DNA from: an uncultured bacterium
GTDB lineage: Bacteria; Patescibacteriota; CPR2; UBA1875; CAIMLA01
NCBI GenBank assembly: GCA_903842085.1
Contig: CAIMLA010000050.1
Span: 5,133-69,132, forward strand
Reading direction: 5' to 3'
Length of the DNA: 64,000 nucleotides
This document shows positions 1 through 35,885 of this stretch, piece after piece (positions within the stretch are counted from its first letter, which is position 1; the number at the start of each line of letters is the position of its first letter). The translations under genes were made by a program, and so were the position numbers. The notes beneath the pieces are model-generated. The model saw only the letters and a list, made by a program, of their open reading frames with translations, was not told the DNA's origin and made no database searches.

Positions 1-597
1 TTCAGAAGTTCTAAAGTCATCTTGATATTTATTTAACGATTTCATGTATATCCAACTTATAATAATAAAAAGTGGGATACCGATTAATATTAGGAAGCCA
101 AACAAATAATTTATTTTGAATAAAAAGTACATTGCCACAATAATATAAATTATTTGAGGTACAATATCGTAAAAAAGACCATCGGCAATATCAATCAACT
201 CTTGGATCCCTCTCTCCATTCTTTCTTTGACTTTTCCAGTAGGATTCTTTTCAAAAAAGCTTAAGGACAAAGTTTCAGTATGGTTAAAAACCATATAGGC
301 GAGTTTATTTCTTGTTTTGTTTGACCACACGCTCGCAATATAATCCATTACCGAGTTAAAGATGGACTGTACAAAAATGACCACAATAAACAAAATAAGA
401 TAAAACCAATACTGGTTAGAAACACTTTGAAAGGACAATCCAGTCTTAAGTTGTTTTTCAATCAGATCAAAAAAAAGCTTTATTATCTGTGGTTGTATCA
501 GCTCTATTAAGGCAGAGATGATGCAAAAGATAAATAAAAAAATAGTTAGGCCTCGATAGACGCTCGCAAATTTGATGACACGCCAAAAATTTTTCAC
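1..597 (-). CDS. ABC transporter permease/ATP-binding protein, N-terminal transmembrane domain (partial, continues off the window 5' end); probable GTG start at 595-597
   Basis: Open minus-strand frame from 597 to the window edge, not in the ORF track because it has no stop in the window. My translation (KVKNFWRVIKFASVYRGLTIFLFIFCIISALIELIQPQIIKLFFDLIEKQ...) is typical of the ABC exporter TMD (ABC_membrane-like), with multiple TM helices. Confidence 0.55.
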   Translation of the reverse strand, partial: MKNFWRVIKFASVYRGLTIFLFIFCIISALIELIQPQIIKLFFDLIEKQLKTGLSFQSVSNQYWFYLILFIVVIFVQSIFNSVMDYIASVWSNKTRNKLAYMVFNHTETLSLSFFEKNPTGKVKERMERGIQELIDIADGLFYDIVPQIIYIIVAMYFLFKINYLFGFLILIGIPLFIIISWIYMKSLNKYQDDFRTSE

Positions 598-664
598 TTT
601 CGCTCCAGGTAAATATAAAACACAAGATATATTATAGGATTAAATCTAAGATAGGTGAACTATT

Positions 665-1261
665 TTAGTATTCACGTCTTCCCTCGAGGGATCTAGTTAA
701 GGTGACTTCGTCGGCATATTCGAGGTCTCCACCGACAGGTAGACCTCGCGCGATCCTGGTTATCTTTACTAGTTGAGGTTGGATTAGTTTTTGGATATAG
801 AGAGCCGTGGTCTCACCCTCAAGGTCAGGGTTCATGGCCAAGATCACCTCTTTTGGTTTGGCGTTTTTTATCCGTAGCAACAATTCTTTAATAAATAAAT
901 CATCCGGTCCGATCCCTTCAACTGGTGAAATAATGCCACCGAGCACATGGTAAGAGCCTTTGTAGCCTGTTTTCTCAAAGGCAACAACGTCTAGCGGCTC
1001 ACTGACAACACAGATTATTTCAGGATCACGACTCTTATCTTGGCAGACTCGACAAATCTCTTCATCAGTTAGATTACAACAAAGAGCGCAATATTTGATC
1101 GCTTTCTTTAAATTCAAGACTGCCTCTCCGAGCCCTCTGATGTTTTCATCCGATCCTCTCAAAAGATAAAAAGTAAGCCTCTGGGCTGTTTTTGGTCCGA
1201 CACCAGGTAATTTAGCCAGTTCGTCTATAAGGTCTTGAACACTTTTTGGTATGACGTTCAT
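665..1261 (-). CDS. recR: Recombination protein RecR
   Basis: 198 aa with helix-hairpin-helix (GVGPKTAQRL), a C4 zinc finger (CALCCN...CRVC) and a Toprim domain. Conserved ybaB-recR pairing. Confidence 0.9.
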   Translation of the reverse strand: MNVIPKSVQDLIDELAKLPGVGPKTAQRLTFYLLRGSDENIRGLGEAVLNLKKAIKYCALCCNLTDEEICRVCQDKSRDPEIICVVSEPLDVVAFEKTGYKGSYHVLGGIISPVEGIGPDDLFIKELLLRIKNAKPKEVILAMNPDLEGETTALYIQKLIQPQLVKITRIARGLPVGGDLEYADEVTLTRSLEGRREY

Positions 1262-1270
1262 TAATCGGTC

Positions 1271-1570
1271 CTACATTCCAGGGAATCCGCCTAATCCACC
1301 CATTTCTTTCATCAGGTTGGCCGCCACATCCTGAGACCGCTTAATAGCGCTTTCAATTGCGGTTTTAATATCTTTTTCCAAAACATCCAGCTTTTCAACA
1401 TTAACATCGTCTTCATTGATGCTAACTTTTTGTATTTTCTGCTCTCCATTGATCACAATTGTAACTGCTCCTGATTCGACTGTAATCACTTCATTTTTAA
1501 GCTTCTTTTGAATTTCTCTCGCTTTTTTTACAAAATCTAGTTGTTCTTTTGCTTTTCCAAACATAATCAA
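1271..1570 (-). CDS. ybaB: Nucleoid-associated protein YbaB/EbfC
   Basis: 99 aa, YbaB-family size and sequence style, immediately upstream of recR. Confidence 0.8.
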   Translation of the reverse strand: MIMFGKAKEQLDFVKKAREIQKKLKNEVITVESGAVTIVINGEQKIQKVSINEDDVNVEKLDVLEKDIKTAIESAIKRSQDVAANLMKEMGGLGGFPGM

Positions 1571-1621
1571 ATCCTTTCATTAACAAAATCTATATTATAA
1601 TACTGCCACCTTATATTCAAG

Positions 1622-3376
1622 CTAATTTAGCTTGTATATAAGAATTGAGCCACCAATATTTTCAATCGGTTTGATGTTATCTAGCCATGAATAATCCATG
1701 CCCCCATTTGCTTCTTTTTTGAGTTTTGAATTTTGATAGAAAGTGGCACTCACAGCAAAATAGCCCGTCGGTTTGCCATTTTGAACATGCCATTCGATGG
1801 CTTTATCGCCAAGATAATACTTGGCCGGAAAAGCCCCAGGAAAGACGTCAACCTTAATTTTGTTAATATTGTTTTTTTCGGTCCATTCATTAAGCCTTTT
1901 AATATCTTGGCCCCAGTCTGTATTTGAATCTGTCAAATATTTATAGCCATTCTTGTAACCGCCAATAAACTCGTTGTAGTAGGCCAGATAATGAGGGTAG
2001 ATCATAATCGCCTCAGTGATATACCAGATTGTGAGTAAAATAATTATCATCGGGAGAAGGGTTATTTTCTTTCTTAAGGCTTTAAAGTCAACGAGGCAAG
2101 CTAATCTTGAAATAAATAAGAAAATAAAGGCATAAAGTGGGAGCATATATCTAATGCCGAGGTTAATTTTACCCTGCATCCCCATAATCATTAAGACGAC
2201 AGGTATAATCCAGATGTATATTTCCGTAAACCAATCTTTCTTCGGCAGTTTTTTCCAAAATACGATAATCAATAAAAGGAAGATAAATATTGGAATCGCT
2301 GTTTTGAGGGCAAAGGTAACCGGGTAATAATACCACCAACCCTGGTTTGACACCTTTCCGAGTAAAAACGCGTCATGACCGCCCTCTACGTGGCTTGTAA
2401 CCATAAAAAATCCTAACAGCCACTGACCTAATGGCTTTGTGATGGCATGTTCTGATAAAGGCATAAGAATATTTTTAGCTTGTTTTGAGATCCCTGCATT
2501 ACCCGGCAAGGATTCAGTAATCAAGCCCTTTTGCACCGTTTCAGACATATTGATCGTGTGAGGAATGTAAAAAATCCACATTGCGGCTATCCCGATCAGA
2601 CCAATCGCGACAAAGGAGACAAAACCAGATAAAAACCTTTTACTCAATTTTTTATCGTTGATTCTGGAGAAAAATGTATTTTCATCCTTTCTCCCTTTTT
2701 TGATTAACATTAGAATAAAAACAATTACAAAGGCTGGCCCTAGGATGGCTGCTGAAAACTTGGTAATTAAAGTTAAACCGAAGCCAAGACCGGCTATGAG
2801 GAGATTAATTTTTGTCGGCTTTTGTAAATATCGATAGAGCGAATACATGGCTAAAAATAGAGCCAAAGAAATCCCTAAATCAGTCGTCACGAACCTGGAA
2901 TGAGCGATTATGTTAGCATTAAAGACGAAAAGAACTAAAGCGAAGAGACCGGCCTTGGTCCCAAAAAGCTCTCTTGCCCATCGGTAAATAAAATATCCAA
3001 AGATTAACGCTAACAGCATTATTGGGATCCTCGCTAACAAGATCAAAGTATTTGGATCATTACCAAATCTATAAATGAAATCCCAGCCAATTTCCCATTG
3101 ATTGTTAATGACCGGTGTATTTGATCTCCAATAGTCATAGGGGAATTTTGCCCCCCACAAAACCAAGGGTAGAGCCGAAAGATCCTTAATCAGAGGTGGA
3201 TGTTCTGGGTTCAGCCGATAATCACCGGTCGTGACATAAGAGAAACCTGAAGGGATGTGGGCGATCTCATCAACAATCGGGGAATCGCCTTTAGCGGAAA
3301 AAAACATTAAACCAAGCATAATCAGAAGTAATGAGCCCACGATTAATTTACGTAAATTTTTATTAGTTATTTTCAT
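1622..3376 (-). CDS. GT-C fold glycosyltransferase, family 39/83 (PMT/ArnT-like polyprenol-phosphate-sugar dependent transferase)
   Basis: 584 aa polytopic membrane protein. DE motif in the first periplasmic loop (PIVDEIAHIP). Soluble C-terminal domain. Confidence 0.7.
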   Translation of the reverse strand: MKITNKNLRKLIVGSLLLIMLGLMFFSAKGDSPIVDEIAHIPSGFSYVTTGDYRLNPEHPPLIKDLSALPLVLWGAKFPYDYWRSNTPVINNQWEIGWDFIYRFGNDPNTLILLARIPIMLLALIFGYFIYRWARELFGTKAGLFALVLFVFNANIIAHSRFVTTDLGISLALFLAMYSLYRYLQKPTKINLLIAGLGFGLTLITKFSAAILGPAFVIVFILMLIKKGRKDENTFFSRINDKKLSKRFLSGFVSFVAIGLIGIAAMWIFYIPHTINMSETVQKGLITESLPGNAGISKQAKNILMPLSEHAITKPLGQWLLGFFMVTSHVEGGHDAFLLGKVSNQGWWYYYPVTFALKTAIPIFIFLLLIIVFWKKLPKKDWFTEIYIWIIPVVLMIMGMQGKINLGIRYMLPLYAFIFLFISRLACLVDFKALRKKITLLPMIIILLTIWYITEAIMIYPHYLAYYNEFIGGYKNGYKYLTDSNTDWGQDIKRLNEWTEKNNINKIKVDVFPGAFPAKYYLGDKAIEWHVQNGKPTGYFAVSATFYQNSKLKKEANGGMDYSWLDNIKPIENIGGSILIYKLN

Positions 3377-3402
3377 TTTCTCTCAATCGATAGAATCAAA
3401 CC

Positions 3403-4284
3403 TTATTTAATGATTACTTCTTCGAAAAGGGCATCGATCTTCCTGCGAGCATTCTTCTTATTATATTTACCGCTTATTATGTTCCATTGTACTTTAAATA
3501 TATCTTTAAATGAATTGATTGAGTCTTTAACCGGGTCAACGGTTGCTCCTTCTGCTACATCGTTCCACTCGACTGGTATTTCGATAGTTTTAAATTTGTA
3601 TTTTTGAGCGATGGCAAGATATTCGGTATCAAAGCCAAAGCCATAGACAACTTGAAGGCTCGCAATAAACTGTGCCACCGATGTTTTGTAAAGTTTAAAC
3701 CCACACCGTTGATCAACATAGCTTTGATTTAAAAGGACTGAAAAAGCCAGATTGCCACCCCGGCTGATAAATTGACGTAAACGACCTTGCTTGCCTTTAG
3801 CGGTATAATCTTTTGAGTGTCCAAAAATTAAAACTTCAAATAAGCTTTTAAGGCCATGAAATAAGGCCATGAAATAGTTTGGATGATATGGCCTTGGACT
3901 TTTTATATAGCGAGAGCCCATAATAATTTGATATTCATCTAGATATGGTAGTAGTTTAGTGATCTCTGAAATCTTTGTTGAGCTATCCGCATCCATAAAA
4001 ATAAGATATTTCCCCCGAGAAGCTAGGATACCATCTTGAATTGCCTGTCCCTTCCCTTTTCTGCTATCTTTCGGCTCGGTGTATTCAATATGCTCAAATT
4101 GCTTGGCGTATTTTCTCGCGATTTCAAGTGAGTGATCAGTACTATGCGAGTCCGCTAAGATAACCTGCGTTTTAAATTTTTGATGGCTAGTATATTCTAA
4201 AATTTGTTTTATCGTTTTGTCAAAGCGCTTCTCTTCATTAAGAAAAGGAATGATTATCGATAAGTAAATATTTTCTTCTGTCAT
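3403..4284 (-). CDS. GT2 polyprenol-phosphate glycosyltransferase (Dpm1/GtrB/ArnC-like)
   Basis: 293 aa. N-terminal GT-A fold (IIIPFLNEE ... ADSHSTDHS ... FMDADS DxD motif) with a C-terminal amphipathic/TM region. Confidence 0.75.
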   Translation of the reverse strand: MTEENIYLSIIIPFLNEEKRFDKTIKQILEYTSHQKFKTQVILADSHSTDHSLEIARKYAKQFEHIEYTEPKDSRKGKGQAIQDGILASRGKYLIFMDADSSTKISEITKLLPYLDEYQIIMGSRYIKSPRPYHPNYFMALFHGLKSLFEVLIFGHSKDYTAKGKQGRLRQFISRGGNLAFSVLLNQSYVDQRCGFKLYKTSVAQFIASLQVVYGFGFDTEYLAIAQKYKFKTIEIPVEWNDVAEGATVDPVKDSINSFKDIFKVQWNIISGKYNKKNARRKIDALFEEVIIK

Positions 4285-4296
4285 TAAGCTCCTTGT

Positions 4297-5511
4297 CTAT
4301 TTTTTATAAATGAATTTTTGATCAAATTGTTGCTGGATATAATCATTTTTACCCCAAGCATAAAAAAACTTTTCATAGTTGTAGTACACAGACAGAAAGA
4401 TAAAGAAAGATAAGATAATAGTCAAAACAAGCTTGGCGTTTTTATTTAAGGGAAAGGTCTTAAACCAAACAGTTAAGAGATAATCCAAGATCACTGAAGA
4501 GAGAATTAAGACAATCGGCACGATAAATATCAGACTGAAGGCATTCTGATTATTTAACAAAGCCAACGCTGTCATGGATAATAATAGAAAAGCAGTCAAG
4601 AAAAAGTACTTTCGTCTTTCTAGATGAGCCACAGCGTAAGCCAAACCACACAAAAACGTTATCGCGATAAACGGTCCAAGAATTGGCTCAAGGCCGATGG
4701 TTCCATAGCCAGCATAATCAGATTGATAAATTAACGAGCGCCAAATATCGCCAAAATTTATTAGATAATTACCGAATGATCCCGGGTTGAAGTAACTTAC
4801 AAGAGAATTGATGTTTTGCGGTAAATGATATAAGTAAGGAAGACTTATAATGATTGCAGAGAGAGCCATCAATAGATACTGTTTCCAGTAAGAATTTAAA
4901 ATCAGATGATTCTTCTGATAGAAGGAGACAAAAGATATGGCGATCACAATCGGGATTAAAACAAAGATTTGGTTAACATACAAAGACAAACCGACTAATG
5001 ACCCAAGCAATATAAACCAAGCGCTCTTTTTGCTCCGAAGAGCAAGTGTCGTCACTAGAAGTAAGGAGATAAGGGTGGTTGGGATTAATAAACTGGAGTT
5101 GATTGTTCGAGTCATAATTAAATCCAAGACATCAATTGAAATAAATAAAACACCCAGTAAGGCTATTTTTTTATTAAACCAATTCTTAATAAAAACATAA
5201 AATAAAATTATGGTTGAAACACTGATTAATATTTGAAAAATCTTAATTACAATAATGTTAAAGCTGGAAAGATAGCCTAGTCCAGCCACGAGGTAGAGAT
5301 AGATTAAATCAAAAAATTGATTAGACTTAGGAATCCAACCATTGCTAATGAGGGTTTTTGCTTCTTTAAGGATCTCAATCTCATTGAAAGACAGATTCTT
5401 TGGCATTGAAGCCAAATTATAGAAACGCAAAATTATTGCAAATAAAATGATTAACGAAAAAAATATTTGATTTTGGTATCTGTCTAATGATGTTCTTATT
5501 TTTTTTATCAT
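4297..5511 (-). CDS. Second GT-C/ArnT-like membrane glycosyltransferase
   Basis: Polytopic membrane protein with an RFYNL...NEIE motif resembling the ArnT/PMT N-terminal loop. The start is moved to the internal Met (MIKKIRTSL) so it no longer overlaps gtrA. The track ORF extends to 5580. Confidence 0.5.
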   Translation of the reverse strand: MIKKIRTSLDRYQNQIFFSLIILFAIILRFYNLASMPKNLSFNEIEILKEAKTLISNGWIPKSNQFFDLIYLYLVAGLGYLSSFNIIVIKIFQILISVSTIILFYVFIKNWFNKKIALLGVLFISIDVLDLIMTRTINSSLLIPTTLISLLLVTTLALRSKKSAWFILLGSLVGLSLYVNQIFVLIPIVIAISFVSFYQKNHLILNSYWKQYLLMALSAIIISLPYLYHLPQNINSLVSYFNPGSFGNYLINFGDIWRSLIYQSDYAGYGTIGLEPILGPFIAITFLCGLAYAVAHLERRKYFFLTAFLLLSMTALALLNNQNAFSLIFIVPIVLILSSVILDYLLTVWFKTFPLNKNAKLVLTIILSFFIFLSVYYNYEKFFYAWGKNDYIQQQFDQKFIYKK

Positions 5512-5515
5512 AGTT

Positions 5516-5971
5516 TTATGAGCTAAATACCCAAAATTTATATAACATGAAGTTCCAAAGTAAAGAAAAAAAGATGGCACAAAATTTAGCGAAGTTATCT
5601 GTGATAAAGGAATCAGATAGAAACTTTAGTGATTTAAAAAGACGACATAATTTTAACACGAAATTACCAGGCCACAAAAATTTATTGGTTAATATCCAAA
5701 CAATTCCATTGTGAATTACATAAATACCGATGACCGTTGATAGAAAAAATTTTACAAATTCAAAGCCACTCCCATTGCTGGAGCCACCGAATGTCCAATA
5801 TCGATTAAGAAGGTAGCTATTAATCATCGCAATCGAGCTTGAAATGTAGCTCGCTACGGTAGCGCTAATCCTTTTGAATCTTCTGAATATATTAAATAAA
5901 AATAGGTCAAGGAGCGTGTTTATGACCCCGACAATAACAAATCTTGATACCTGAAAACCAAGCGCGTTCAT
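5516..5971 (-). CDS. GtrA-family polyprenol-linked sugar translocase
   Basis: 151 aa, 4 TM, GtrA-like (VIVGVINTLLDLFLFNIF ... RYWTF). Confidence 0.7.
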   Translation of the reverse strand: MNALGFQVSRFVIVGVINTLLDLFLFNIFRRFKRISATVASYISSSIAMINSYLLNRYWTFGGSSNGSGFEFVKFFLSTVIGIYVIHNGIVWILTNKFLWPGNFVLKLCRLFKSLKFLSDSFITDNFAKFCAIFFSLLWNFMLYKFWVFSS

Positions 5972-6029
5972 TAATCTCCTTAAAGTATAGTTACATTATA
6001 AGTGCTTTTTGACCTTCAAAACAAGGAAT

Positions 6030-7391
6030 TTAGAGGAGGGACTCTCGTTTTTTATCAACAGAACTAAATTTCATTTGCTCTGGTTTGAAGTGAAGTTCGA
6101 TTTGTCCCGTTGGGCCATTGCGATGTTTTTTTATCAAAATATCAGCGACATTCTTTCGTTCGGTTTCTTGCTCATAGTAGTCCTCACGATAGATAAAGAC
6201 AACGACGTCAGCGTCTTGTTCAATTGAGCCAGACTCTCGAAGATCGGCTAGTTGAGGAATCCTTGATGGCCTATTTTCGACAGCTCTCGATAGTTGAGAT
6301 AGAGCTAAGACCGGGAGATTTAACTCCCGCGATAAACCCTTTAACGATCGTGATATATCAGAGACTTCTTCAACCCGATTGGAAGAATTATTCCCTTGGA
6401 TAAGTTGGATATAATCTACCACAACCAAACCAAGTCCATGTTCAGCTTGCAGTCGACGGGCCTTTGTTCTCATCTCAAGAACGCTGACCCCGCTCGAGTC
6501 GTCAATCCAAAGTGGCGCTTCAGCAAGAGTGGCCATGGCCTGCCCAATTCTGGGAAAATCATCATCATCTAGGTTGCCCGTTCTGAGCTTCCATGAGTCA
6601 ATTCTGGCCTCGTTACAAATTAATCGATCGACTAGTTGTTCTTTGCTCATTTCAAGAGAAAAGATTAAAACCGGAAGTCCCTCAACCGCAGCCACACTCT
6701 GCGCTATGTTTAAAGCCAGGCTTGTCTTCCCCATAGAAGGCCTCGCCGCTAAAATGATCAGGTCAGAGGGCTGCAGTCCAGCCAATAAGTTATCCAGGTC
6801 CTTAAAGCCGGTTGGAACGCCCCGAATCGAGCCCTTATCTTTATGAAGTTCGTCAATCCGATCAAAACTTTCAGTTAGAACGTCCTTAAGAGCAACAAAG
6901 TCCTCTTTAAGGTGCTTTTGAGAAACCTTAAAAACCTTTTGTTCTGCCTTATCGAGGATGCTTGTAATCTCTTCGTTTTCCTCCATGGCTAAATTGTTTA
7001 TTTCATTTGCGGCTTTTATGAGCCGTCTTAAAGTGGCTTTATCTGAAACAATTTTTCCGTAATTAATAACATGAGCGGCCGTTGGGACCGAACTGGCCAA
7101 GGTGGCAATATAGCTACTGCCACCGATCATTTCAAGTTTCTTATTGTCTTCAAGCTTACTTGTCAGAGTGATAACATCGATCGGTTCTCTCTTTTCATAA
7201 AGTTGAATCATCGCTTTATAGACGACCGCGTGAGTTTCCTTATAGAAATCTATCTCTGAAACAATGTCAGCTACTTTGACGATCGCCTCTTTGTCTAGAA
7301 GGATTGCCCCCAGGAGTGATATCTCAGCATCAATGTTTTGAGGTGGAATATTAATTTTTTCATCTAACATATGTAACCTTTCCGCCCTCAC
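6030..7391 (-). CDS. dnaB: Replicative DNA helicase DnaB
   Basis: 453 aa with an N-terminal DnaB domain. Walker A (ARPSMGKTSLAL), Walker B, RecA-like fold. Confidence 0.9.
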   Translation of the reverse strand: MRAERLHMLDEKINIPPQNIDAEISLLGAILLDKEAIVKVADIVSEIDFYKETHAVVYKAMIQLYEKREPIDVITLTSKLEDNKKLEMIGGSSYIATLASSVPTAAHVINYGKIVSDKATLRRLIKAANEINNLAMEENEEITSILDKAEQKVFKVSQKHLKEDFVALKDVLTESFDRIDELHKDKGSIRGVPTGFKDLDNLLAGLQPSDLIILAARPSMGKTSLALNIAQSVAAVEGLPVLIFSLEMSKEQLVDRLICNEARIDSWKLRTGNLDDDDFPRIGQAMATLAEAPLWIDDSSGVSVLEMRTKARRLQAEHGLGLVVVDYIQLIQGNNSSNRVEEVSDISRSLKGLSRELNLPVLALSQLSRAVENRPSRIPQLADLRESGSIEQDADVVVFIYREDYYEQETERKNVADILIKKHRNGPTGQIELHFKPEQMKFSSVDKKRESLL

Positions 7392-7394
7392 CGA

Positions 7395-8900
7395 TTAATC
7401 AACAACTTCTCCACCAAATATCTCTAGAGCGTCGGCTAATAGATCATCATTTTCAACTTTTTTCTGACCGATATTATTTGCTCTAATAAAACACTCAATT
7501 CTTAGATTTTGACCATATATTCTCTTAATTGACGCTTCGATTAACTCTCTGTTTTTGCTATCTTCTATTCTCTCTTTATGAAATTTATATGGAAAGTATA
7601 GGCATAATTTATCGTTACCTAATTCTGGATCACAGACTTTCAAAAACGCATGGATTGAGTTGTTGCGAGACTTGATATCCATTAGGAGTTGTTGCCACAA
7701 AGCCGTGTTATTCGTCGGCTTCTTTTTGGAAGTTATTACTTCTTGGTCACTTGATGATGCCACCTTCTCAGTTTTATGGTCACTTTCTTCGGCTATTTTT
7801 GTTATTTTCTTGTCTTCCCTATTCAGGCAAATTTTTATTGTGGCCACTTCAATTCCCAGCTGAGGTAAAGAAGAGTATTTATATATTTGTTCATGCAAAA
7901 GAATGGTTTCGATCGTCTCGATAATCTTTTCTTGATCTGTCTCTTTTGCAATCTTCCTTAAGTTTTGAGATATTTCAACCTCTAATTCAGATCTCCCCTT
8001 CCCCGATATTTTAGCCAATAAAAGCTTATGAAGCGTATTCACTAAACTTTTATTAAACATTCTAAAGTCCTGACCTTCGTTATCAAGAGCCTTTATAATG
8101 ATAAGCGCTTCATTAACCTTAGAAGAGAAGATGGCAGATAAATAGTCTTCAATCTTAGTTTCATCTGATAAACCCAATATTAATTCAACATCGCCGGCTT
8201 CAAGTTGGTCTTTTCCATTTGAAGAAATTTGATCCAATAAAGAGATCGCGTCTCTAAAACCACCATCACTGTGTTTGGCTATAAGTTGAGTTGCTTCCTT
8301 AGTAATCTTGATCTTCTCTTTATCAGCGATAAAACTAATATGGTTGATGATCGTATCTTGATCGATCTTTTTAAAGTCGAACCGTTGGCAGCGGGAAACG
8401 ATTGTCGTCGGTATTTTGCTTATTTCAGTCGTTGCAAAAATAAAAATAGTATGCTTGGGCGGATCCTCAATAATTTTAAGAAGCGCATTAAAAGAAGACT
8501 TGGAGAGCATATGGGCTTCATCAATGATGTAAATCTTGTATTTTAGGTTAACCGGAGCAAAGTTTGCCCTCTCAATTATAACCTCCCTAATATTGTCTAC
8601 CTGGGTATGAGAAGCGGCATCTATCTCAATAATGTCTAACGATTTGTTGTCCATGACTGATAGACAATTCGGGCAGCTATTGTCAGGGTTACCTGTCATA
8701 TTGCTAAGACAATTGACCGATTTTGCGAAAACTCTTGCCGCCGAAGTTTTTCCCGTTCCCCTAGGACCGCAAAAAATATACGCATGGGAGATCGTATCAT
8801 TAGCCACAGAATTTTTCAGAATCTTTGTAATGTATTTTTGTCCGTAGATTTCATCAAATGTCTTGGGACGATATAAGCGATACAGAGCTTGTTGTGACAT
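7395..8900 (-). CDS. dnaX: DNA polymerase III subunit gamma/tau
   Basis: AAA+ clamp loader: CGPRGTGKTS Walker A, zinc module (CPNC), DEAH-like box (IDEAHML), SRC motif. Confidence 0.9.
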   Translation of the reverse strand: MSQQALYRLYRPKTFDEIYGQKYITKILKNSVANDTISHAYIFCGPRGTGKTSAARVFAKSVNCLSNMTGNPDNSCPNCLSVMDNKSLDIIEIDAASHTQVDNIREVIIERANFAPVNLKYKIYIIDEAHMLSKSSFNALLKIIEDPPKHTIFIFATTEISKIPTTIVSRCQRFDFKKIDQDTIINHISFIADKEKIKITKEATQLIAKHSDGGFRDAISLLDQISSNGKDQLEAGDVELILGLSDETKIEDYLSAIFSSKVNEALIIIKALDNEGQDFRMFNKSLVNTLHKLLLAKISGKGRSELEVEISQNLRKIAKETDQEKIIETIETILLHEQIYKYSSLPQLGIEVATIKICLNREDKKITKIAEESDHKTEKVASSSDQEVITSKKKPTNNTALWQQLLMDIKSRNNSIHAFLKVCDPELGNDKLCLYFPYKFHKERIEDSKNRELIEASIKRIYGQNLRIECFIRANNIGQKKVENDDLLADALEIFGGEVVD

Positions 8901-9021
8901 TCTTTCCCTTTTTTATCAAACTAACTATTCTATTTTAAGCTTTTTGCAGCCTCAATTTAAGTACAAAATCAGCAAATTTAGTGGATATCGTTGCCCATAG
9001 AGTGGATAAACTGTGTATTGA

Positions 9022-9882
9022 CTATATCTCAAGCTCTTTTACTTCATCATCATCATTATTAATTGGCGTTGATTTAGTTTCAATCTTCACCGCGCTATCC
9101 TCCGGTTGAGCTTTTTCTTGCTGAGTTGGAAAAACAATTGCTGGAGTCTCTTCACTTCTCACCTCCTCAGCTGGAAGAGGGGCACTCCCTTGTTCTAAAG
9201 GCTTTTCTGCCACATTTTGAGCTGGGTTTGGTTCAAGTTCGTTTGGAGCCTCTTGATTAGACTCATTTGCAACCGCCGTTTGTGGGCTAGCCGGGGAAAC
9301 GGGTGCGATCGGTCCCTGAGGACTAAGTGGATTTTCTGCAGTCGTTGCATTTGTCAGAGCTCCCTTTTTCACTATATTGTCTATCGCTGCCCATTCACTA
9401 TCATGTTCTTTAGGAATGATTATTGAAACTTGGTCGCCAGGTTCCCCTTTATAATAGGTGACGCTTGCTTGCAAGACCTTGTATGCCTTCCCTTCGCAAT
9501 TAACATAAAGAAAGCCCTCGCCATAAACTAACGTTCCTAATGACTTCCTTCTCTCGACTGGTCGAATTTGTTTAAAGATAAAACTGCCATCCTCGGCGAT
9601 CGTTAGTTTTAGAATATCACCTTCAACCAATTTCGACTTAGAGGCATAATTTGCCGGTACTGGGTATTCTTTACCGTCGGCGCCATGCATGTATTCTCCC
9701 ATGTAAGTGCCTTCTACTACTTTACCCTCATCGACAACTCCCAGTTCCTTTGCCTTTTTAACAGGATCAATCTGTTTAAGTTCTTTTTGCCCTAAGGCAG
9801 ATCTCAGCAAAATTCGAGCAGAGTGAACATCCGCCTCGGCTGCGTCTAAGAGTTTCTGTATTTTTTCTAATTCATAATCCAT
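9022..9882 (-). CDS. Hypothetical protein with a ~110-aa Pro/Ala/Gln/Glu-rich low-complexity C-terminal tail
   Basis: Long ORF with good coding periodicity, immediately upstream of dnaX on the same strand. No family recognised. Confidence 0.4.
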   Translation of the reverse strand: MDYELEKIQKLLDAAEADVHSARILLRSALGQKELKQIDPVKKAKELGVVDEGKVVEGTYMGEYMHGADGKEYPVPANYASKSKLVEGDILKLTIAEDGSFIFKQIRPVERRKSLGTLVYGEGFLYVNCEGKAYKVLQASVTYYKGEPGDQVSIIIPKEHDSEWAAIDNIVKKGALTNATTAENPLSPQGPIAPVSPASPQTAVANESNQEAPNELEPNPAQNVAEKPLEQGSAPLPAEEVRSEETPAIVFPTQQEKAQPEDSAVKIETKSTPINNDDDEVKELEI

Positions 9883-12336: not shown

Positions 12337-12613
12337 TAAATATTCTTTATCAAAAAATCTTCGGTTTCCCGAAGACAGCTAAAAACGAATTCAGCTCCTA
12401 GGTAGCGCATTAAGGCTTGGGCCTGCTACTGTCTCCGGATCTATTGTTCCTAAATCCTATCAAAAGTCACGGTCTTTGTCAATTAAAATATTGTAATTTC
12501 GAGACGCTTTAATCTGGTTCTTAAAAATCTTGTCTTAGTGAAAGAAGATAATTATCAAGCCTGACCTTATCTAGTGTTCTTCTCCTCTGGGGATCTGCAT
12601 TTATTAGGGCTTA
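12337..12613 (-). promoter_or_regulatory. Long 5' leader of rplJ-rplL with a terminator-like hairpin (12367-12384) immediately before the RBS; candidate L10 leader attenuator
   Basis: 277-nt non-coding gap. On the minus strand, UCUUCGGGAAACCGAAGA then UUUUUUGAUAAAG lies ~25 nt before the rplJ ATG. Confidence 0.35.
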
Positions 12614-13129: not shown

Positions 13130-15058
13130 CTACCTCGTAAAATAATAATTATAAAAATCAGCCGCCACTGGCACTGCATAGACGTCTCCTCCGCCCGCCC
13201 CTTCCAACAAGACTGTTAACACGACCTGGGGTTGACTGTAAGGCGCAAAAGAGGTAAACCAAGCATGTTGTTTTGAGTTATTAGGTCCGTATTGGGCCGT
13301 TCCAGTTTTACCCGCAATTTCACCGGGGAGATTCTTTAGCGCCGCCCCACTTCCACTAGTCACTGTTTGTCTCATCCCCGCTCGAACAATGGCAAGATTT
13401 TTTTCAGATATAATATTTTTATCTAGAGGTTCAGCCGGAACTTGACTTATCATTTTTCCATTTTGATCTAAGACAGAATCTGCTAATTTCGGCTTATAGA
13501 GGGTTCCTCCATTTGCAATCGCGCTTGTGGCATTTGCAATTTGGAGTGGTGTCACCAAGATATCACCTTGTCCAATGGCCATATGATAGGTATCCCCAAG
13601 ATACCATGGCTGGGCTTGAGTTCGTTCCTTCCACTCTGGGTCAGGAAGTGAGCCCTTGGCTTCGCCCAAGATATCAATTCCGGTGTATTTTGCAAAGCCA
13701 AATTTTTCCAGATAGGATTTCATTTTTTCTGGTCCTAAGCCTTTTATGTTTTGATAGCCGCCGCCAATTGCATAAAAAAACGTATTCACTGATTCAGCAA
13801 TGGCCTTCGTGACATTTGTCACACCGTGGCCACCCGCTTTCCAATCCGGAAAACTAAATTCACCAATCTTGATTCCTCCGGTCGAATTCACGGTACTACT
13901 TTCATTGATTGTCCCTTCTTCTAAGGCTGCTGCCGCTAAAAAAGGCTTAATCGATGAACCTGAAGGATATTCACCCCCAGTGGCTCTGAAGATTAAGGGC
14001 TGATCTTCATTTTTTAATAATAAATCATAGTCAGCATCACTGATTCCTTTTGCAAATAGGTTGTTATCATAACTAGGGAGTGAGACTAGAGCTAATATTT
14101 TGCCCGTATTCGGATCCATGGCGATAGCAGACGCTTTGCTAATCTTGGCAAGCTTCATCTGTTTCTGAAGGGCTTCAGTTAAAACTCTTTGTAAATTGAG
14201 ATCAATCGATAGTTTCACATTGTCCCCTGGTATTGGTTCAATTAATCCAAGCACTTTCTCATTCTGTCCCTCGGAATTTACTTCAATTCTTTCCTTGCCA
14301 TTAATGCCCTTTAACTGATTTTCGTACGTTTTCTCTATTCCTGACTTTCCGATAAAATCTGTCAATAAATAGTTTTTATTACCCTTAAGCTCTTCTTCTG
14401 AGATTCTGCCAACATAACCCAGTGCGTGGGAGAGCAAGCCTCCATCTAGGTATTCTCTGATCGGATTAACCTCGATCGAAATTCCTTTTAGCTCTTTTAT
14501 CTGAGAAGATATTATGATGGCCGTGTCTTTAGTCAGGTTTTTACTAATGAGCACCGGTTGGGTATATTGCGAGCCCTTTTCAATGATCTTTTTATTTATG
14601 TCTTCGACGCTACTATTCGTAATTTTAGCAAGATTTGAGATTACAAGATCCCGCTCTTTTTGTTCAGCAGGAAGGTTGCTTGGCGTAATGACGAGGTCGT
14701 AATTTGGCACATTCTTGACTAAAGGGGTCCCATTTTTATCATAAATGATTCCCCGAGGGGCTCTCACGATTCGTTCCTTGAGCCTATTAAGTTCCGCGCT
14801 ATTAAAGTTTGCTTTTCCCTTGACTATCTGAAGGTCGAAAAGCTTACCCGAAATTAAAATAAAAGTTAAAATGATAAATCCAAAAAAAATCAGAAAGTAA
14901 TAATTCTTCTTCTCATTCTCTATGTTAGGCGCATCGACATCGGCGGTTAAAACATGGTTAATCCATTTTTCTGATTCAGCGGTTTTGCTCGTTTGAATCT
15001 TCCATTTTTTCTCCCCTTCAAGCCCTATTAAATTTTTAAATATATTCTTTTTACTCAT
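13130..15058 (-). CDS. mrdA: Penicillin-binding protein 2 (elongasome transpeptidase)
   Basis: 642 aa. N-terminal TM, SxxK (SSIKP), SxN (SVN), KTG (KTGTA). Immediately upstream of mreBCD. Confidence 0.85.
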   Translation of the reverse strand: MSKKNIFKNLIGLEGEKKWKIQTSKTAESEKWINHVLTADVDAPNIENEKKNYYFLIFFGFIILTFILISGKLFDLQIVKGKANFNSAELNRLKERIVRAPRGIIYDKNGTPLVKNVPNYDLVITPSNLPAEQKERDLVISNLAKITNSSVEDINKKIIEKGSQYTQPVLISKNLTKDTAIIISSQIKELKGISIEVNPIREYLDGGLLSHALGYVGRISEEELKGNKNYLLTDFIGKSGIEKTYENQLKGINGKERIEVNSEGQNEKVLGLIEPIPGDNVKLSIDLNLQRVLTEALQKQMKLAKISKASAIAMDPNTGKILALVSLPSYDNNLFAKGISDADYDLLLKNEDQPLIFRATGGEYPSGSSIKPFLAAAALEEGTINESSTVNSTGGIKIGEFSFPDWKAGGHGVTNVTKAIAESVNTFFYAIGGGYQNIKGLGPEKMKSYLEKFGFAKYTGIDILGEAKGSLPDPEWKERTQAQPWYLGDTYHMAIGQGDILVTPLQIANATSAIANGGTLYKPKLADSVLDQNGKMISQVPAEPLDKNIISEKNLAIVRAGMRQTVTSGSGAALKNLPGEIAGKTGTAQYGPNNSKQHAWFTSFAPYSQPQVVLTVLLEGAGGGDVYAVPVAADFYNYYFTR

Positions 15059-15546
15059 TTATCCATTTTTTCTTCTAACCATAAAAAATACTTCTCTAAA
15101 ACCCGATCAATTATAACAGCAAAGGTCAAAGATAATAAAATGCAAATAAGATACGAGAATAAATAGGTTTGCCAAGAATCCCAATTATTAATCAGTATCC
15201 TCGTCTTAAATAAATAAACGATTGTAATTGAAATTGTGACAAGACCAAGAAAAGTGAATTTATTTGAGTAATTACTTTTACGATAAAAAAAGAAACGATC
15301 AACCAAGGTAATCGCTATAAATAGAATTGTATAAAATGGATAACTATTATTTGAGGCGAAATCAAATAACATGCCTGCGAGGGTTGCTATAATTGGAATA
15401 AAATTATTCCGGCTTTTTAAAGATAGGTCGATAAGAAAAGGCAGAAACAGAAAAGGGGTGACCTCGAATATAACAAAATAGGGCATAAAAGAAAGTTCTA
15501 GAAAAACCAAAGCCATCGATATTAAAAAAGTCACAAGAAATGGCAT
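15055..15546 (-). CDS. mreD: Rod shape-determining protein MreD
   Basis: 163 aa polytopic membrane protein, in mreBCD order. Confidence 0.6.
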   Translation of the reverse strand: MPFLVTFLISMALVFLELSFMPYFVIFEVTPFLFLPFLIDLSLKSRNNFIPIIATLAGMLFDFASNNSYPFYTILFIAITLVDRFFFYRKSNYSNKFTFLGLVTISITIVYLFKTRILINNWDSWQTYLFSYLICILLSLTFAVIIDRVLEKYFLWLEEKMDK

Positions 15547-16337
15547 TAGCTCCTCTTTATTACCATGACATTATCTAATGTATTAAAGTCTAAGAAGGGT
15601 TGGATATCTATGGCTTGAAAGATTGACCCAGATATCTGTTGGACGTTTTCAACCTCCCCGATTAGTAAGCCTTTGGGGAAAGTTCCTCCAAGACCACTAG
15701 TTGAGACAATATCTCCTTTTATCACCTTTTCATTTTGGGGAACTTGGTCCATAGAGAGACCATTCCCAATTTTGCCTTTTGTCGTCCCTGAGATATTCTT
15801 GTTTACAACTGTGGCCGCGATCGTACTCTCAGGATCGGTAATCAATATTACTTTGGCTGTTTTTGTTTCAACGACATTTACTCGACCAACTAGATAGCCG
15901 CTTGCCACAACAATGTCGCCAAGCTTAACTCCATCGTCTGTACCGACCCCAATTACAACTGAACTGGTAATATTTGAAGGGTCGAAATAAACAACCTTTG
16001 TCCCGATCAGATTATATTGAGAGGCTTTTTTAAAGTTAAGATCGTTTCGTAATTGGTTGTTTTCTTTTTGTAACGAATCTAGCTTGCTTACTTCATTAAG
16101 GGCGACGTCTAATTTGTTTTGGAGGCTTTTATTATCCTTCTGCAGACTTCCAACGTTAATAATATTTCTAAAGAATCCCGAGACACCTGAGCCTAGGTCC
16201 GTAAAGACCGTCCCCACTGGCTTAGTATAAGACAAGACACTTCTAGTGATGCCGAATCTCCCCACATTATCAATCGTCACAAATGCTAGCAAGATCACCA
16301 CAATAATAATAAATGTGAATGACTTCTTTCTCTTCAT
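15546..16337 (-). CDS. mreC: Rod shape-determining protein MreC
   Basis: N-terminal TM, coiled coil, then a beta-rich domain. Position between mreB and mreD. Confidence 0.75.
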   Translation of the reverse strand: MKRKKSFTFIIIVVILLAFVTIDNVGRFGITRSVLSYTKPVGTVFTDLGSGVSGFFRNIINVGSLQKDNKSLQNKLDVALNEVSKLDSLQKENNQLRNDLNFKKASQYNLIGTKVVYFDPSNITSSVVIGVGTDDGVKLGDIVVASGYLVGRVNVVETKTAKVILITDPESTIAATVVNKNISGTTKGKIGNGLSMDQVPQNEKVIKGDIVSTSGLGGTFPKGLLIGEVENVQQISGSIFQAIDIQPFLDFNTLDNVMVIKRS

Positions 16338-17396
16338 CTAGCCTACTTTTGGCGATTTTTCATATTGAGTTGTAACTAAAACTTCCTTTAGAACATCAAT
16401 ATCTTCTAAGACCAAACCGGCGCCCCTGACCACACAGGTTAAAGGATCTTCAGCTATCTGGACAGGCATTTTTGTATTAACGCTAATCAATTTATCAAGA
16501 CCCCTTAAGAGGGCTCCACCGCCAGCTAAAATAATCCCTTTGTCCATGATATCAGCGACCAACTCGGGTGGAGTTTCTTCGATCGTCATCTTCACTGAAT
16601 CAACAATTTCCATTATTGAACGAGACAAAGCTTGTCTGACTTGATCGCTATCAACGGTGATTGCTTTAGGCAGCCCTGTCACTAAATCGCGACCTCTCAT
16701 AATCGATTCCAGGCGGTCCTTCATCGGATAGGCTGAACCAATGTCAATTTTGATATCTTCAGCGGTTCTCTCGCCCAGCAAAAGATTATATTCGTCCTTT
16801 GCAAACTGAATGATATCTTCATTCAGTTCATCTCCGGCAATTCTCATGGACCGAGATGCAACAATCCCACCAAGTGAAATAACGGCCACTTCTGTTGTGC
16901 CTCCGCCGATATCAACAATCATCGACCCAGAAGCATTTTGGACCGGCAGTCTCGCCCCTATGGCCGCGGCCATTGGCTCTTCAATCAGATACGCTTTTCT
17001 AGCGCCAGCATTAGTTGTGGCATCTTCGACGGCTCTTTTTTCCACCTCCGTCACACCAGATGGAATCCCGATTACGACTCTAGGACGTGGTAAAATCGAG
17101 AATTTTTCTTTGTGTACTTTTTCAATAAAATATTTCAACATCTGTTCCGTTACTTCAAAATCACTAACCACACCATCGACGAGTGGTCTTCTAGCGACAA
17201 TGTTGGCCGGTGTTTTGCCAACCATCTTCTTTGCGTCTTCGCCTATGGCCAGGATTTGCTTAGTTTTTGTGTTCAGAGCAACGACTGAGGGTTCATTTAT
17301 AACAATGCCTCTTCCTTTAACATAGACAAGGGTATTTGCTGTCCCTAGATCAATCCCGATATCATGAGAAAAGTATCCAAATATCTTATTTAACAT
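16338..17396 (-). CDS. mreB: Rod shape-determining protein MreB
   Basis: Actin-fold ATPase (DLGTANTLVYV ... GGGTTEVA ... LAGGGALL). Confidence 0.9.
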   Translation of the reverse strand: MLNKIFGYFSHDIGIDLGTANTLVYVKGRGIVINEPSVVALNTKTKQILAIGEDAKKMVGKTPANIVARRPLVDGVVSDFEVTEQMLKYFIEKVHKEKFSILPRPRVVIGIPSGVTEVEKRAVEDATTNAGARKAYLIEEPMAAAIGARLPVQNASGSMIVDIGGGTTEVAVISLGGIVASRSMRIAGDELNEDIIQFAKDEYNLLLGERTAEDIKIDIGSAYPMKDRLESIMRGRDLVTGLPKAITVDSDQVRQALSRSIMEIVDSVKMTIEETPPELVADIMDKGIILAGGGALLRGLDKLISVNTKMPVQIAEDPLTCVVRGAGLVLEDIDVLKEVLVTTQYEKSPKVG

Positions 17397-19858: not shown

Positions 19859-20554
19859 TTATGCTCCAAAGTTTCTATTAATATTTTTATACCAAGATAT
19901 CGCTTTGTCTAGGTCTGCTTCCTCAAATTCTGGCCAATATTTTTCGGTAAAATATAGCTCCGAGTAAGCTGATTGCCAAAGTAAAAAATTTGAAAGTCTA
20001 TGTTGACCTCCACAGCGGATAATTAAGTTCGGATCAGGCAACCCCGCCGTATCAAGATTTTTTTCAATTGTCGCTTCGCAAATATCTTCTTTTCCTATAT
20101 CACTCTCTATAATTTTCTTTATTGATTCGACGATCTCATTTCTGCCACCATAAGACAAGGCGACATTAAAAAAACCTTCTTTATTATTTTTGGTCAAATT
20201 TTCTGTCTTGATAATTATTTGTTGTAAATTTTTCCCTAAGTCTTCGGTCTTACCGATGGCTCTGAATTTTATGCCTTCGTCGTGAAGTGTTTTGGCGTCT
20301 TTTTTAAGGCCAAATTGTAATATTTTCATGATACTATCAATCTCTTTATTATCTCTTTTCCAATTTTCTGTTGAAAACGCATAAACAGTTAAGTACTTTA
20401 TGCCTTTACTTTTAAATAATTTAACCGTCTCTATGATTCTTCTATATCCTGCCCGATGACCATATTCTGAATTTTTTCCTATATTCTTTGCCCAACGTCT
20501 GTTACCATCCATTATTATACCAATATGTAGAGGCAGATCGTTAGTATTGCTCAT
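19859..20554 (-). CDS. uppS: Undecaprenyl pyrophosphate synthase
   Basis: GIIMDGNRRWA cis-IPPS signature. Confidence 0.9.
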   Translation of the reverse strand: MSNTNDLPLHIGIIMDGNRRWAKNIGKNSEYGHRAGYRRIIETVKLFKSKGIKYLTVYAFSTENWKRDNKEIDSIMKILQFGLKKDAKTLHDEGIKFRAIGKTEDLGKNLQQIIIKTENLTKNNKEGFFNVALSYGGRNEIVESIKKIIESDIGKEDICEATIEKNLDTAGLPDPNLIIRCGGQHRLSNFLLWQSAYSELYFTEKYWPEFEEADLDKAISWYKNINRNFGA

Positions 20555-25296: not shown

Positions 25297-26133
25297 CTAA
25301 ATTTGTGGTAGCCACTTAGCTGATACGAAAAGTATTGTTAAAAACAATACGGTAAATACGATATATTCTATAATAACATTTTTTGTCAAACTTTTTTCGG
25401 CCTTGTGCGAAACTATTCCCCAGGAAAAATAAAAGATTATGGAAAGAATAACCGCCGGTAATGGTGTTCCCAGTAAAGAGGCTTTCTCAAAATTTACGTA
25501 AATTGGATAATTAATAATCCAGATAGAAGAGACCCAGGCTATTTCCATCCCCAACAAGGCGATTACGATATTATAAGGTAAAAATTTCTTTTGATTTATC
25601 CCGTTTTCCCAGGCTAGAAAATATGATATTAAGAAAAATATACCACCGGTAATCAAAACAACGGCGGACAAGGGTAAACTGATTTTGGAGTCAACACTGC
25701 TCGTAATGTACAATTTAAAAAGAACCGATAAATTGAAGAAAATAGACAAAATTGAGACGCTCACTAACAAATTTCTTTGAGTTTTGGCGGCCCTGTCTTC
25801 CAAATTAAAGACCCGTCTTAAGGCAACAAATAGCAAGTAGTTTATAATGCCGAAGATAACTAATATGGCAAACCTGACGATATCGACAGAGAGTGATTGA
25901 ATGTATAGAATCCCCCCGAAATTAAACAGGACTGGTAGCAACAAAAATTTCAGGCTTTCTACGATTTCTTTTTTGACGTATTTGACTTTAAAAAAATAAC
26001 GCAGGGTGGCAATTATAGTTATCAGCATCGTCATTAGTAGCCAACCTAACAAATTAGGATAGATGACTACTAAAAGTTGTTGAAGGGAAAGTATTAAAGC
26101 AATTACAAGAGATTTTTTTTGGATTGAATTCAT
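25297..26133 (-). CDS. Hypothetical polytopic membrane protein (translationally coupled to the upstream LCP gene)
   Basis: 278 aa, ~8 predicted TM helices. The ATG overlaps the LCP stop. Confidence 0.4.
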   Translation of the reverse strand: MNSIQKKSLVIALILSLQQLLVVIYPNLLGWLLMTMLITIIATLRYFFKVKYVKKEIVESLKFLLLPVLFNFGGILYIQSLSVDIVRFAILVIFGIINYLLFVALRRVFNLEDRAAKTQRNLLVSVSILSIFFNLSVLFKLYITSSVDSKISLPLSAVVLITGGIFFLISYFLAWENGINQKKFLPYNIVIALLGMEIAWVSSIWIINYPIYVNFEKASLLGTPLPAVILSIIFYFSWGIVSHKAEKSLTKNVIIEYIVFTVLFLTILFVSAKWLPQI

Positions 26134-35810: not shown

Positions 35811-35885
35811 CTCAAGCCTCCGATAAGATGCTTTTCAAGGAACTGCCTATTATTATACAGACATCGACAAACCTTAGATATTGTC

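Follow-up and report, generated by a model that had tools for sequence, protein, structure and literature searches.

A conserved four-gene block of Patescibacteria that probably encodes a transmembrane glycosylation system of several components

The described systems closest to the locus treated here divide transmembrane glycosylation into three roles: a GT2-family glycosyltransferase loads a sugar onto a polyprenyl phosphate, a GtrA-type protein carries the product across the membrane, and a GT-C enzyme spends it outside the cell. These roles are filled by GtrA, GtrB and GtrC in Shigella and Salmonella phages, and by the CsbB/GtcA/YfhO and GtlA/GtcA/GtlB sets in Firmicutes; one GtrA protein, or one donor, is known to serve several GT-C enzymes (PMC8035078). 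The same three roles can be assigned to four consecutive genes in the stretch of DNA analysed here, a 64-kb window of contig CAIMLA010000050.1 (assembly GCA_903842085.1) from an uncultured bacterium of the candidate phyla radiation (CPR), or Patescibacteria. The genes encode a GtrA-family protein, a small GT-C, a GT2 and a large GT-C, all co-directional on the minus strand between dnaX-dnaB and ybaB-recR. With a probability that we put at roughly three in four, they give this Patescibacteria/CPR-type bacterium a transmembrane glycosylation system of the three-component, Gtr type.

In the scheme that we propose, the GT2 would attach to the inner face of the membrane by two helices, one amphipathic (residues 137-154) and the other basic (residues 168-185), and would load undecaprenyl phosphate with a single hexose taken from a nucleotide sugar, as its fold, profile matches and context suggest. 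The four-helix GtrA protein would then take the polyprenyl-phosphate sugar to the outer leaflet, the role expected from its family, and may partner the GT2 in the membrane. Outside the cell, the two paralogous GT-C enzymes, placed by fold and family, would spend the lipid-linked donor. The large GT-C has a PMT-like active-site signature and an extracytoplasmic C-terminal domain that probably binds the acceptor; the small one most likely serves a different, membrane-proximal acceptor or a different step. Candidate acceptors are secreted or membrane proteins, or a glycopolymer anchored to the wall or to lipid.

The block differs from each of its described counterparts. Unlike the Gtr, CsbB and GtlA systems, it has a GT2 without membrane helices and two paralogous GT-C enzymes, which belong to the PMT_2/PMT group and not to the YfhO or GtrC type. 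The actinobacterial pair of Ppm1 and Pmt (a GT39 protein O-mannosyltransferase, PMT) is similar in that the large GT-C scores above the PMT threshold, carries a DE motif in loop 1 and, to judge by pattern, a counterpart of the HPPxxK/RxxxxD/K residues, and is accompanied by a soluble, putatively peripheral donor GT2. Unlike actinobacterial Pmt, however, the large GT-C has neither a PMT_4TMC domain nor a match to solved PMTs and ends in a 120-residue DSxxDWGQ domain of its own, and homologues of the block GT2 are labelled as ALG5-type glucose enzymes and not, like Ppm1, as mannose enzymes. ArnC ranks with the best matches of the GT2 in both sequence and fold, and ArnT (5ezm) matches the small GT-C family both by profile (1.1e-5) and by fold; unlike the ArnC/ArnE-ArnF/ArnT pathway, the window holds no genes for 4-amino-4-deoxy-L-arabinose (Ara4N) synthesis, and the flippase is of GtrA type instead of an ArnE/F pair. 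Lipid A is generally taken to be absent from CPR bacteria. A plausible functional analogue is streptococcal GtrB/PgtC2, in which a GT2 makes Glc-P-Und and a GT-C modifies extracytoplasmic Ser/Thr-rich protein segments (PMC12041528); unlike that system, the window yielded no Ser/Thr-rich acceptor candidates.

Proposed donor synthesis and translocation

The initial annotation of this DNA had read the GT2 as a Dpm1/GtrB/ArnC-like enzyme, and both profile and fold comparisons bear this out. The protein matches PF00535 (Glycos_transf_2) at 3.8e-25; here, as for the other three block proteins, all Pfam matches exceed the curated cut-offs. When a profile built from 48 homologues was run against all PDB sequences, the best match was the archaeal type-III dolichyl-phosphate mannose synthase (DPMS) PfDPMS (5mlz; 3.2e-18), followed by ArnC (1.8e-14 to 7.4e-13) and GtrB (1.2e-13). 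Other GT2 enzymes in the PDB matched at 8.6e-12 or weaker, with GpgS at 3e-6. An AlphaFold2 model (pLDDT 90.2) gave a Foldseek list from the PDB in which the top 13 entries are all DPMS, ArnC or GtrB (TM-scores 0.50-0.64). The GT2 is closer to polyprenyl-phosphate glycosyltransferases than to any other solved GT2, and a polysaccharide-synthase type, considered by profile and by fold, is not what is seen. The DxD motif is D98-A-D100, with D98 and D100 invariant in the 48 homologues.

In the model, the first of the two helices named above (YFMALFHGLKSLFEVLIF) is amphipathic, with the polar residues H143, K146, S147 and E150 on one face, and the second is basic. Both lie in an insertion of about 35 residues relative to DPMS (about residues 126-170), and they may, as predicted membrane-interface helices, stand at the position of the interface helices of DPMS. 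The nature of the donor sugar is hinted at by automated labels, since many GT2 homologues are called dolichyl-phosphate beta-glucosyltransferase (ALG5 type) by JGI, a hint of a UDP-hexose rather than a GDP-mannose donor. All NCBIfam matches of the GT2 score well under cut-off and are confined to its first 120 residues or so.

The match of the GtrA protein to PF04138 (GtrA_DPMS_TM) is full-length (profile positions 1-117 of 117) and strong (4.9e-21, or 75.5 bits where the cut-off is 26.1), which upholds its initial reading as a GtrA-type protein. By family, it would translocate the lipid-linked sugar, and it may also partner the GT2 in the membrane. The arrangement has a fused parallel in PfDPMS, where a GT2 is joined to a membrane domain of GtrA-like type, by which the enzyme may flip what it makes (PMC12992685); its two modules are separate genes in the window, split by the small GT-C gene. 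Unlike PfDPMS, the block GT2 has the insertion just described and a DADSST motif, and a single-sequence search of the PDB with the window GtrA found no match, the PfDPMS membrane domain included.

Two side observations concern GtrA genes in other genomes. In a relative (L004), represented by an 842-kb contig, the GtrA gene at 5197-5841 encodes 214 residues only about 29% identical to the window protein, next to a GT2 that is 78% identical; this GtrA has been either replaced or strongly diverged. Separately, 12 of the 80 Patescibacteria loci have a GtrA-family gene that adjoins dnaX and shares its strand (L027, L030, L035, L036, L039, L057, L058, L065, L077, L078, L081 and L085), though the GT-C genes may be several kilobases off on the other strand. 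This adjacency is a conserved gene order for which a functional reason is not obvious.

Two paralogous GT-C enzymes

Two distinct GT-C membrane transferases had been recognized at the outset, one with a clear DE motif and a soluble C-terminal domain and the other with an N-E variant of the motif, and this description holds. The large GT-C matches PMT_2 (1.5e-15, 58.2 bits) and, over residues 57-231, PMT (PF02366; 2e-6, 28.0 bits against a cut-off of 22.7). Across an alignment of 38 homologues at 38-80% identity, D36, E37, H40, N56-P-E-H-P-P61, K64, H159, T164, D166 and K206 are invariant (38/38). The D36-E37 pair follows the first transmembrane segment (residues 10-28) and falls in the first extracytoplasmic loop. 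Past the last hydrophobic segment, the hydropathy profile shows a hydrophilic tail of 120 residues with invariant positions of its own (D483-S, D487-W-G-Q490 and R494, or DSxxDWGQ).

These motifs recall the Pmt of Streptomyces coelicolor, in which D113, H159-P-P..K164, R228..D233 and K302 have been mutated (PMC8698208). The DE pair, H59-P-P-x-x-K64, R161-x4-D166 and K206 of the large GT-C have the same pattern and spacing, a correspondence by pattern matching only. No PMT_4TMC domain (PF16192) was found in the large GT-C at E ≤ 0.01. The initial label of GT39 went too far: the motifs and the PMT score speak for it, but because PMT_4TMC and any match to a solved PMT are missing, the label describes resemblance and not shown membership.

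The small GT-C consists of membrane helices only and matches PMT_2 at 8.6e-10 (39.5 bits against a cut-off of 26.1). A word-index search for its homologues returned just seven proteins; an exhaustive search with a hidden Markov model (HMM) returned 15,624 representatives at E ≤ 1e-3, of which 85 reached E ≤ 1e-30; among these, about ten clusters are orthologues of 403-431 residues, followed by many relatives of about 487-530 residues. From these a family alignment of 60 sequences was made, 58 of which match PMT_2. Besides the ArnT structure mentioned above, its profile finds Pmt4 (9.2e-7) and AglB (4e-4) in the PDB, and the conserved glutamate of the family, E44, aligns with the glutamate of the DE motif in all three. 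The AlphaFold2 model built from this alignment (pLDDT 94.7, pTM 0.92) is helical and membrane-embedded throughout. Its Foldseek matches in the PDB are STT3, AglB, PglB, ArnT, Pmt4, ALG9 and AftB at TM-scores of 0.56-0.68, and transporters score a probability below 0.1 and a TM-score of about 0.1. The possibility that the GT-C proteins are unrelated transporters was looked at in this way, and the small GT-C model matches only GT-C enzymes.

Structural comparison with ArnT, Pmt4 and AftB therefore places the small GT-C, and the large GT-C is placed by Pfam and by profile alignment. In hhalign, the two families align with a probability of 98.2% (E 3.1e-14) over 404 columns, D36-E37 falling on N43-E44. 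On this comparison they are paralogous across the whole membrane core, and the large GT-C, too, is classed as a GT-C fold glycosyltransferase. Single-sequence searches of the PDB gave nothing meaningful for either protein.

In the first outer loop of the small GT-C, N43-E44 stands where the canonical pair is Asp-Glu (D55 in ArnT, D113 in Pmt). The variant is real, and it has company: the E44 position is glutamate in 58 of the 60 family members, and the residue before it is aspartate in only 22, being Ser, Asn, Ala or others elsewhere, which makes xE the usual form of the motif in this subfamily. In the S. coelicolor Pmt, D113N is active and D113A and D113E are not (PMC8698208). Given both facts, the N-E variant alone is no argument against catalysis. 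Other positions conserved in the subfamily, together with E44 in 52-59 of 60 sequences, are R135, P276, G289, W349, F353-P354 and N356. The small GT-C has no equivalents of D166 and K206 of the large enzyme, and xE, R/K90 and R135 make up an alternative signature. The longer relatives of the small GT-C end in a tail of their own; whether it is homologous to the C-terminal domain of the large enzyme was considered, and homology was rejected (hhalign probability 0.4%).

Gene order, conservation and surroundings

The four open reading frames (ORFs) and their flanking genes were as first annotated (Table 1), apart from the start of the small GT-C. This start is the ATG at 5511, 4 nt past the GtrA stop, giving the 404-residue protein that is also in the database (P0121) and has orthologues of 403-404 residues. 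A 427-residue reading from a GTG that overlaps GtrA is an over-extension, ruled against by this ATG and by the orthologue lengths. The intergenic gaps are short: 58 nt from dnaB to GtrA, then 4, 12 and 26 nt within the block, and 51 nt from the large GT-C to ybaB. A ribosome-binding site, AAGGAG, lies 7 nt upstream of the GtrA ATG, and the 58-nt gap contains a perfect TATAAT without a properly spaced -35 element in view, making it a possible internal promoter by its sequence. A consensus promoter scan called no promoter in that gap, and across positions 400-9400 promoter and terminator sites were no commoner than in shuffled sequence, with no intergenic terminator.

Gene order around the block is conserved at two levels. 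Among close relatives, the order tgt, hypothetical gene, dnaX, dnaB, GtrA, small GT-C, GT2, large GT-C, ybaB, recR is identical in three loci (L001-L003) whose large GT-C is 80% identical to that of the window and in L004, where it is 70% identical. Compared with L001, three of the block proteins are about as conserved as RecR (large GT-C 80%, GT2 79%, GtrA 80%, RecR 81%). A wider survey of the species genomes in GTDB turned up at least 596 loci with relatives of the large GT-C, 80 of which were kept and annotated with profiles built from the window; almost all of the 80 are labelled Patescibacteria. In 32 of them the gene immediately upstream of the large GT-C, read from the same strand, encodes a small-family GT-C, and in 22 a dnaX, dnaB, ybaB or recR gene lies within 8 kb. 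In four (L013, L016, L018 and L022), all four block genes are found with dnaX-dnaB and recR, ybaB being detected in L013 and L018, and only the large GT-C is inverted. These are distant relatives: in L013 and L018, DnaB is about 63% and the large GT-C about 41% identical to the window proteins.

In many bacteria dnaX, ybaB and recR are adjacent. At 0.37, the GC content of the block is unremarkable beside the mean of about 0.385 for the window, and a search of its flanks for repeats, tRNA genes and integrases found none. The block is an old, vertically inherited and conserved feature of its lineage, not a recent insertion, and any insertion into dnaX-ybaB-recR is deep in the radiation.

Departures from the standard arrangement suggest which parts belong together most closely. 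Two proteins of about 720 residues (P0093, encoded at L087:7001-9175, and P0112) are fusions of an N-terminal GtrA domain with a large GT-C. The fusion gene in L087 is followed directly by a 247-residue GT2 and preceded by a 537-residue Glyco_trans_2_3 protein, with no small GT-C, and on an Elusimicrobia-labelled contig (L008) an orthologue-type GT2 stands directly before the large GT-C. Because of these arrangements, the core looks like GT2, GtrA and large GT-C, which a small GT-C often joins as a fourth component.

Homologues of the large GT-C also occur in genomes without a CPR label. Two are 58-59% identical (L005, 8001-9773, and L008). The former, at 59%, is on a 3.58-Mb contig, too large for a CPR bacterium, in a polysaccharide locus with Wzm/Wzt ABC-transporter, GT4 and PIG-L genes. 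More distant homologues (34-35% identity) are found in two Bdellovibrionales-labelled loci, L055 and L071. The presence of the large GT-C in such contigs suggests horizontal transfer or mis-binning.

Table 1. Positions of the block genes and of other features in the 64-kb window
Feature	Position	Strand	Evidence or remark
ORF cut by window start, reads like ABC exporter membrane domain	1-664	minus	by eye and synteny
recR	665-1261	minus	downstream of block; TIGR00615 5.5e-76
ybaB	1271-1570	minus	downstream of block; YbaB_DNA_bd 9.2e-13
Large GT-C, 584 aa, with 120-aa hydrophilic C-terminal domain (465-584)	1622-3376	minus	PMT_2, PMT
GT2 (GT-A fold), 293 aa, without transmembrane segments	3403-4284	minus	PF00535 and model
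Small GT-C glycosyltransferase, 404 aa, membrane helices only	4297-5511	minus	PMT_2 and AlphaFold2 model
GtrA-family small membrane protein, 151 aa	5516-5971	minus	PF04138
dnaB-GtrA intergenic gap	5972-6029	minus	TATAAT hexamer and GtrA ribosome-binding site
dnaB	6030-7391	minus	upstream of block; NCBIfam TIGR00665 3.8e-178
dnaX	7395-8900	minus	upstream of block; PRK05563 5.6e-142
Hypothetical protein, 286 aa	9022-9882	minus	between tgt and dnaX; no Pfam match
L10_leader	12343-12456	minus	Rfam, 50.6 bits, above gathering score; upstream of rplJ-rplL
Envelope genes PBP2, MreC, MreB, RodA/FtsW, polysaccharide deacetylase	13130-17396, 30335-31435, 39664-40866
163-aa ORF	15055-15546		no Pfam match; among envelope genes
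UppS, undecaprenyl-diphosphate synthase	19859-20554	minus	PF01255 1.5e-78; 14 kb from block
LCP ligase with LytR_C domain	26130-27557
B12-binding radical SAM protein (460 aa) adjoining DUF6512 membrane protein (175 aa)	34428-36413	minus

Beyond the block, the window is rich in envelope genes. One of them, UppS, would supply the polyprenyl carrier that the block needs, as supporting context outside the block itself. The LCP ligase implies a wall-attached glycopolymer, which could be a candidate acceptor. At the edge of the window, the truncated ORF that follows recR agrees with an ABC_membrane/ABC_tran gene after recR in L001-L003, and the hypothetical protein between tgt and dnaX is kept at the same position in L001-L004 (250-288 residues). 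The L10 leader is the only Rfam match in the 64 kb, and no tRNA gene was found anywhere in the window.

Acceptors, alternative readings and significance

Several features of the block weigh against a Gtr-type glycosylation system and are best seen together. The GT2 has DADSST (DADSSTKI) in place of the extended DADLQxPP signature, which appears as DADLQHPP, DADLQDPP and DADLQNPP in the alignments of PfDPMS, GtrB and ArnC. It has no hydrophobic segment, so the C-terminal membrane helices of GtrB, ArnC and CsbB are missing, and soluble GpgS reaches TM-scores of 0.58-0.59 against its model, so the fold preference for polyprenyl-phosphate enzymes is modest. The small GT-C departs from its family at the conserved positions R90K, N271T and D/N279G, lacks both the C-terminal tail of about 100 residues of its 487-530-residue relatives and a soluble domain, and is 58% (L001) and 41% (L004) identical to its counterparts, against 80% and 70% for the large GT-C. 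It evolves faster than the neighbouring genes and, judging from these substitutions, might be catalytically altered, its function changed or reduced. For the large GT-C, the profile of 38 sequences finds no solved PMT, ArnT or other GT-C in the PDB at E ≤ 10; its link to the GT-C superfamily runs only through Pfam and the hhalign match to the small family. Finally, co-transcription of the block gets no support from the promoter and terminator scan, whose chance-level counts point neither way. As to the missing helices of the GT2, variants with a cytoplasmic GT-A enzyme and a separate membrane protein are known (PMC8035078), so a Gtr-type system is not excluded on this ground.

Two more specific versions of the glycosylation system are about equally likely, and each can be put forward only tentatively. 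The first is protein O-glycosylation, Ppm1/Pmt-like or GtrB/PgtC2-like, in which the large GT-C would transfer the sugar to Ser/Thr residues of proteins that are secreted or lie in the membrane, with pilins, S-layer proteins and lipoproteins as examples. The large GT-C does exceed the Pfam PMT threshold, and its invariant DE, HPPxxK, RxxxxD and K206 are patterned as in the S. coelicolor enzyme (PMC8698208). A precedent is at hand in the streptococcal GtrB and PgtC2, which glucosylate Ser/Thr-rich regions of membrane proteins (PMC12041528), and glycosylation of Saccharibacteria pilins has been predicted (PMC11623550). This version has to contend, however, with the absence of PMT_4TMC and of any sequence match to solved PMTs, the motif correspondence being one of pattern, and with the absence of Ser/Thr-rich disordered segments from the real genes of the 64-kb window (a small sample), where such segments occur only in spurious antisense ORFs. 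Protein O-mannosylation or Gtr-type logic had been proposed from the outset; the GT2, GtrA and GT-C roles have all been matched, but mannose is not indicated, given the ALG5-type labels.

The second version gives the block a non-protein acceptor, which might be a glycopolymer linked to the wall, a polymer resembling lipoteichoic acid or a lipoglycan. Its models are CsbB/GtcA/YfhO, GtlA/GtlB and the mycobacterial GT-C enzymes that depend on polyprenyl-phosphomannose (PPM), and the two GT-C enzymes would serve two polymers or successive steps. Most characterised bacterial GtrA/GT2/GT-C systems act on polymers (PMC8035078), and the window itself encodes an LCP ligase, an enzyme that attaches glycopolymers to peptidoglycan, along with UppS, PBP2, RodA and a polysaccharide deacetylase. 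The 59%-identical large GT-C beside Wzm/Wzt and GT4 genes on a non-CPR contig points the same way, and a GT-C without a soluble domain would fit a membrane-proximal, lipid-linked acceptor. Yet no teichoic-acid or polysaccharide backbone genes adjoin the block, and the motifs of the large GT-C look closer to those of PMTs than to those of YfhO or GtrC.

A broader reading strikes us as unlikely, if not far-fetched: that the block is the local form of an ancient, Patescibacteria-wide envelope-glycosylation pathway, tied to dnaX-dnaB...ybaB-recR since early in the radiation, with the two GT-C enzymes as an obligatory pair that together build or decorate the main CPR surface glycoconjugate. The pair would then combine a PMT-like enzyme bearing a new acceptor-binding C-terminal domain (DSxxDWGQ) with a minimal xE GT-C.

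Somewhat more doubtful still is a small GT-C that serves as a non-catalytic or specialised heteromer partner of the large one, as in obligate PMT dimers. The tandem of small and then large GT-C in 32 of the 80 loci across Patescibacteria is consistent with such a partnership. So are the faster evolution of the small GT-C, its substitutions R90K, N271T and D/N279G, and its lack of the canonical Asp, of D166/K206 equivalents and of a soluble domain; PMTs act as dimers (PMC7759382, PMC12705809). Against this reading stands the conservation of E44, R135, P276, G289, W349, F353-P354 and N356 within the subfamily, where xE is the norm, and a D-to-N Pmt is active. In L087, moreover, a GtrA-GT-C fusion and a GT2 occur without a small GT-C, a partner that the large enzyme can therefore sometimes do without.

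It is very unlikely that the GT2 is an ordinary nucleotide-sugar transferase acting on a soluble or polymer acceptor, with the GT-C donor coming from elsewhere. Such an enzyme could well lack a transmembrane segment and DADLQxPP, resemble GpgS in fold nearly as much as its top matches, and match NCBIfam families far below cut-off in the N-terminal 120 residues or so. But the profile finds DPMS at an E-value 12 orders of magnitude below that of GpgS, the top 13 fold matches are all polyprenyl-phosphate enzymes, the amphipathic and basic helices are predicted at the place of the DPMS interface helices, and the gene is tightly linked to GtrA and the GT-C genes in several lineages. Least credible of all is the insertion suggested by the initial annotation, if it is read as a recently acquired island within dnaX-ybaB-recR: the block does part genes that are adjacent in many bacteria, and close homologues of the large GT-C do occur in non-CPR-labelled genomes, but the identical order in the 80% and 70% relatives, the four distant loci with dnaX-dnaB and recR, the ordinary GC content and the clean flanks leave a recent or mobile event with next to nothing in its favour.

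The preferred reading, a Gtr-type transmembrane glycosylation system, is built of parts from known families, its logic is textbook, and it would not surprise a specialist. What lifts it above routine annotation is its broad conservation and its linkage to a replication gene cluster, the minimal GT-C, the unclassified C-terminal domain, and its apparent novelty in CPR bacteria: the searchable literature on GtrA, ArnT, mannosyltransferases and Tn-seq in CPR yielded no description of such a system, and a study of the Saccharibacteria pilus calls glycosylation processes unexplored (PMC11623550). Two of its proteins are structural curiosities, a 404-residue GT-C with neither a soluble domain nor the canonical Asp, and a large GT-C with this unclassified C-terminal domain. 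CPR bacteria, or Patescibacteria, make up a large share of bacterial diversity and live attached to hosts, and their surface chemistry is almost uncharted. For that surface chemistry, the block provides four conserved candidate genes for CPR surface glycosylation, two of which, encoding the large GT-C and the GT2, equal RecR in conservation.

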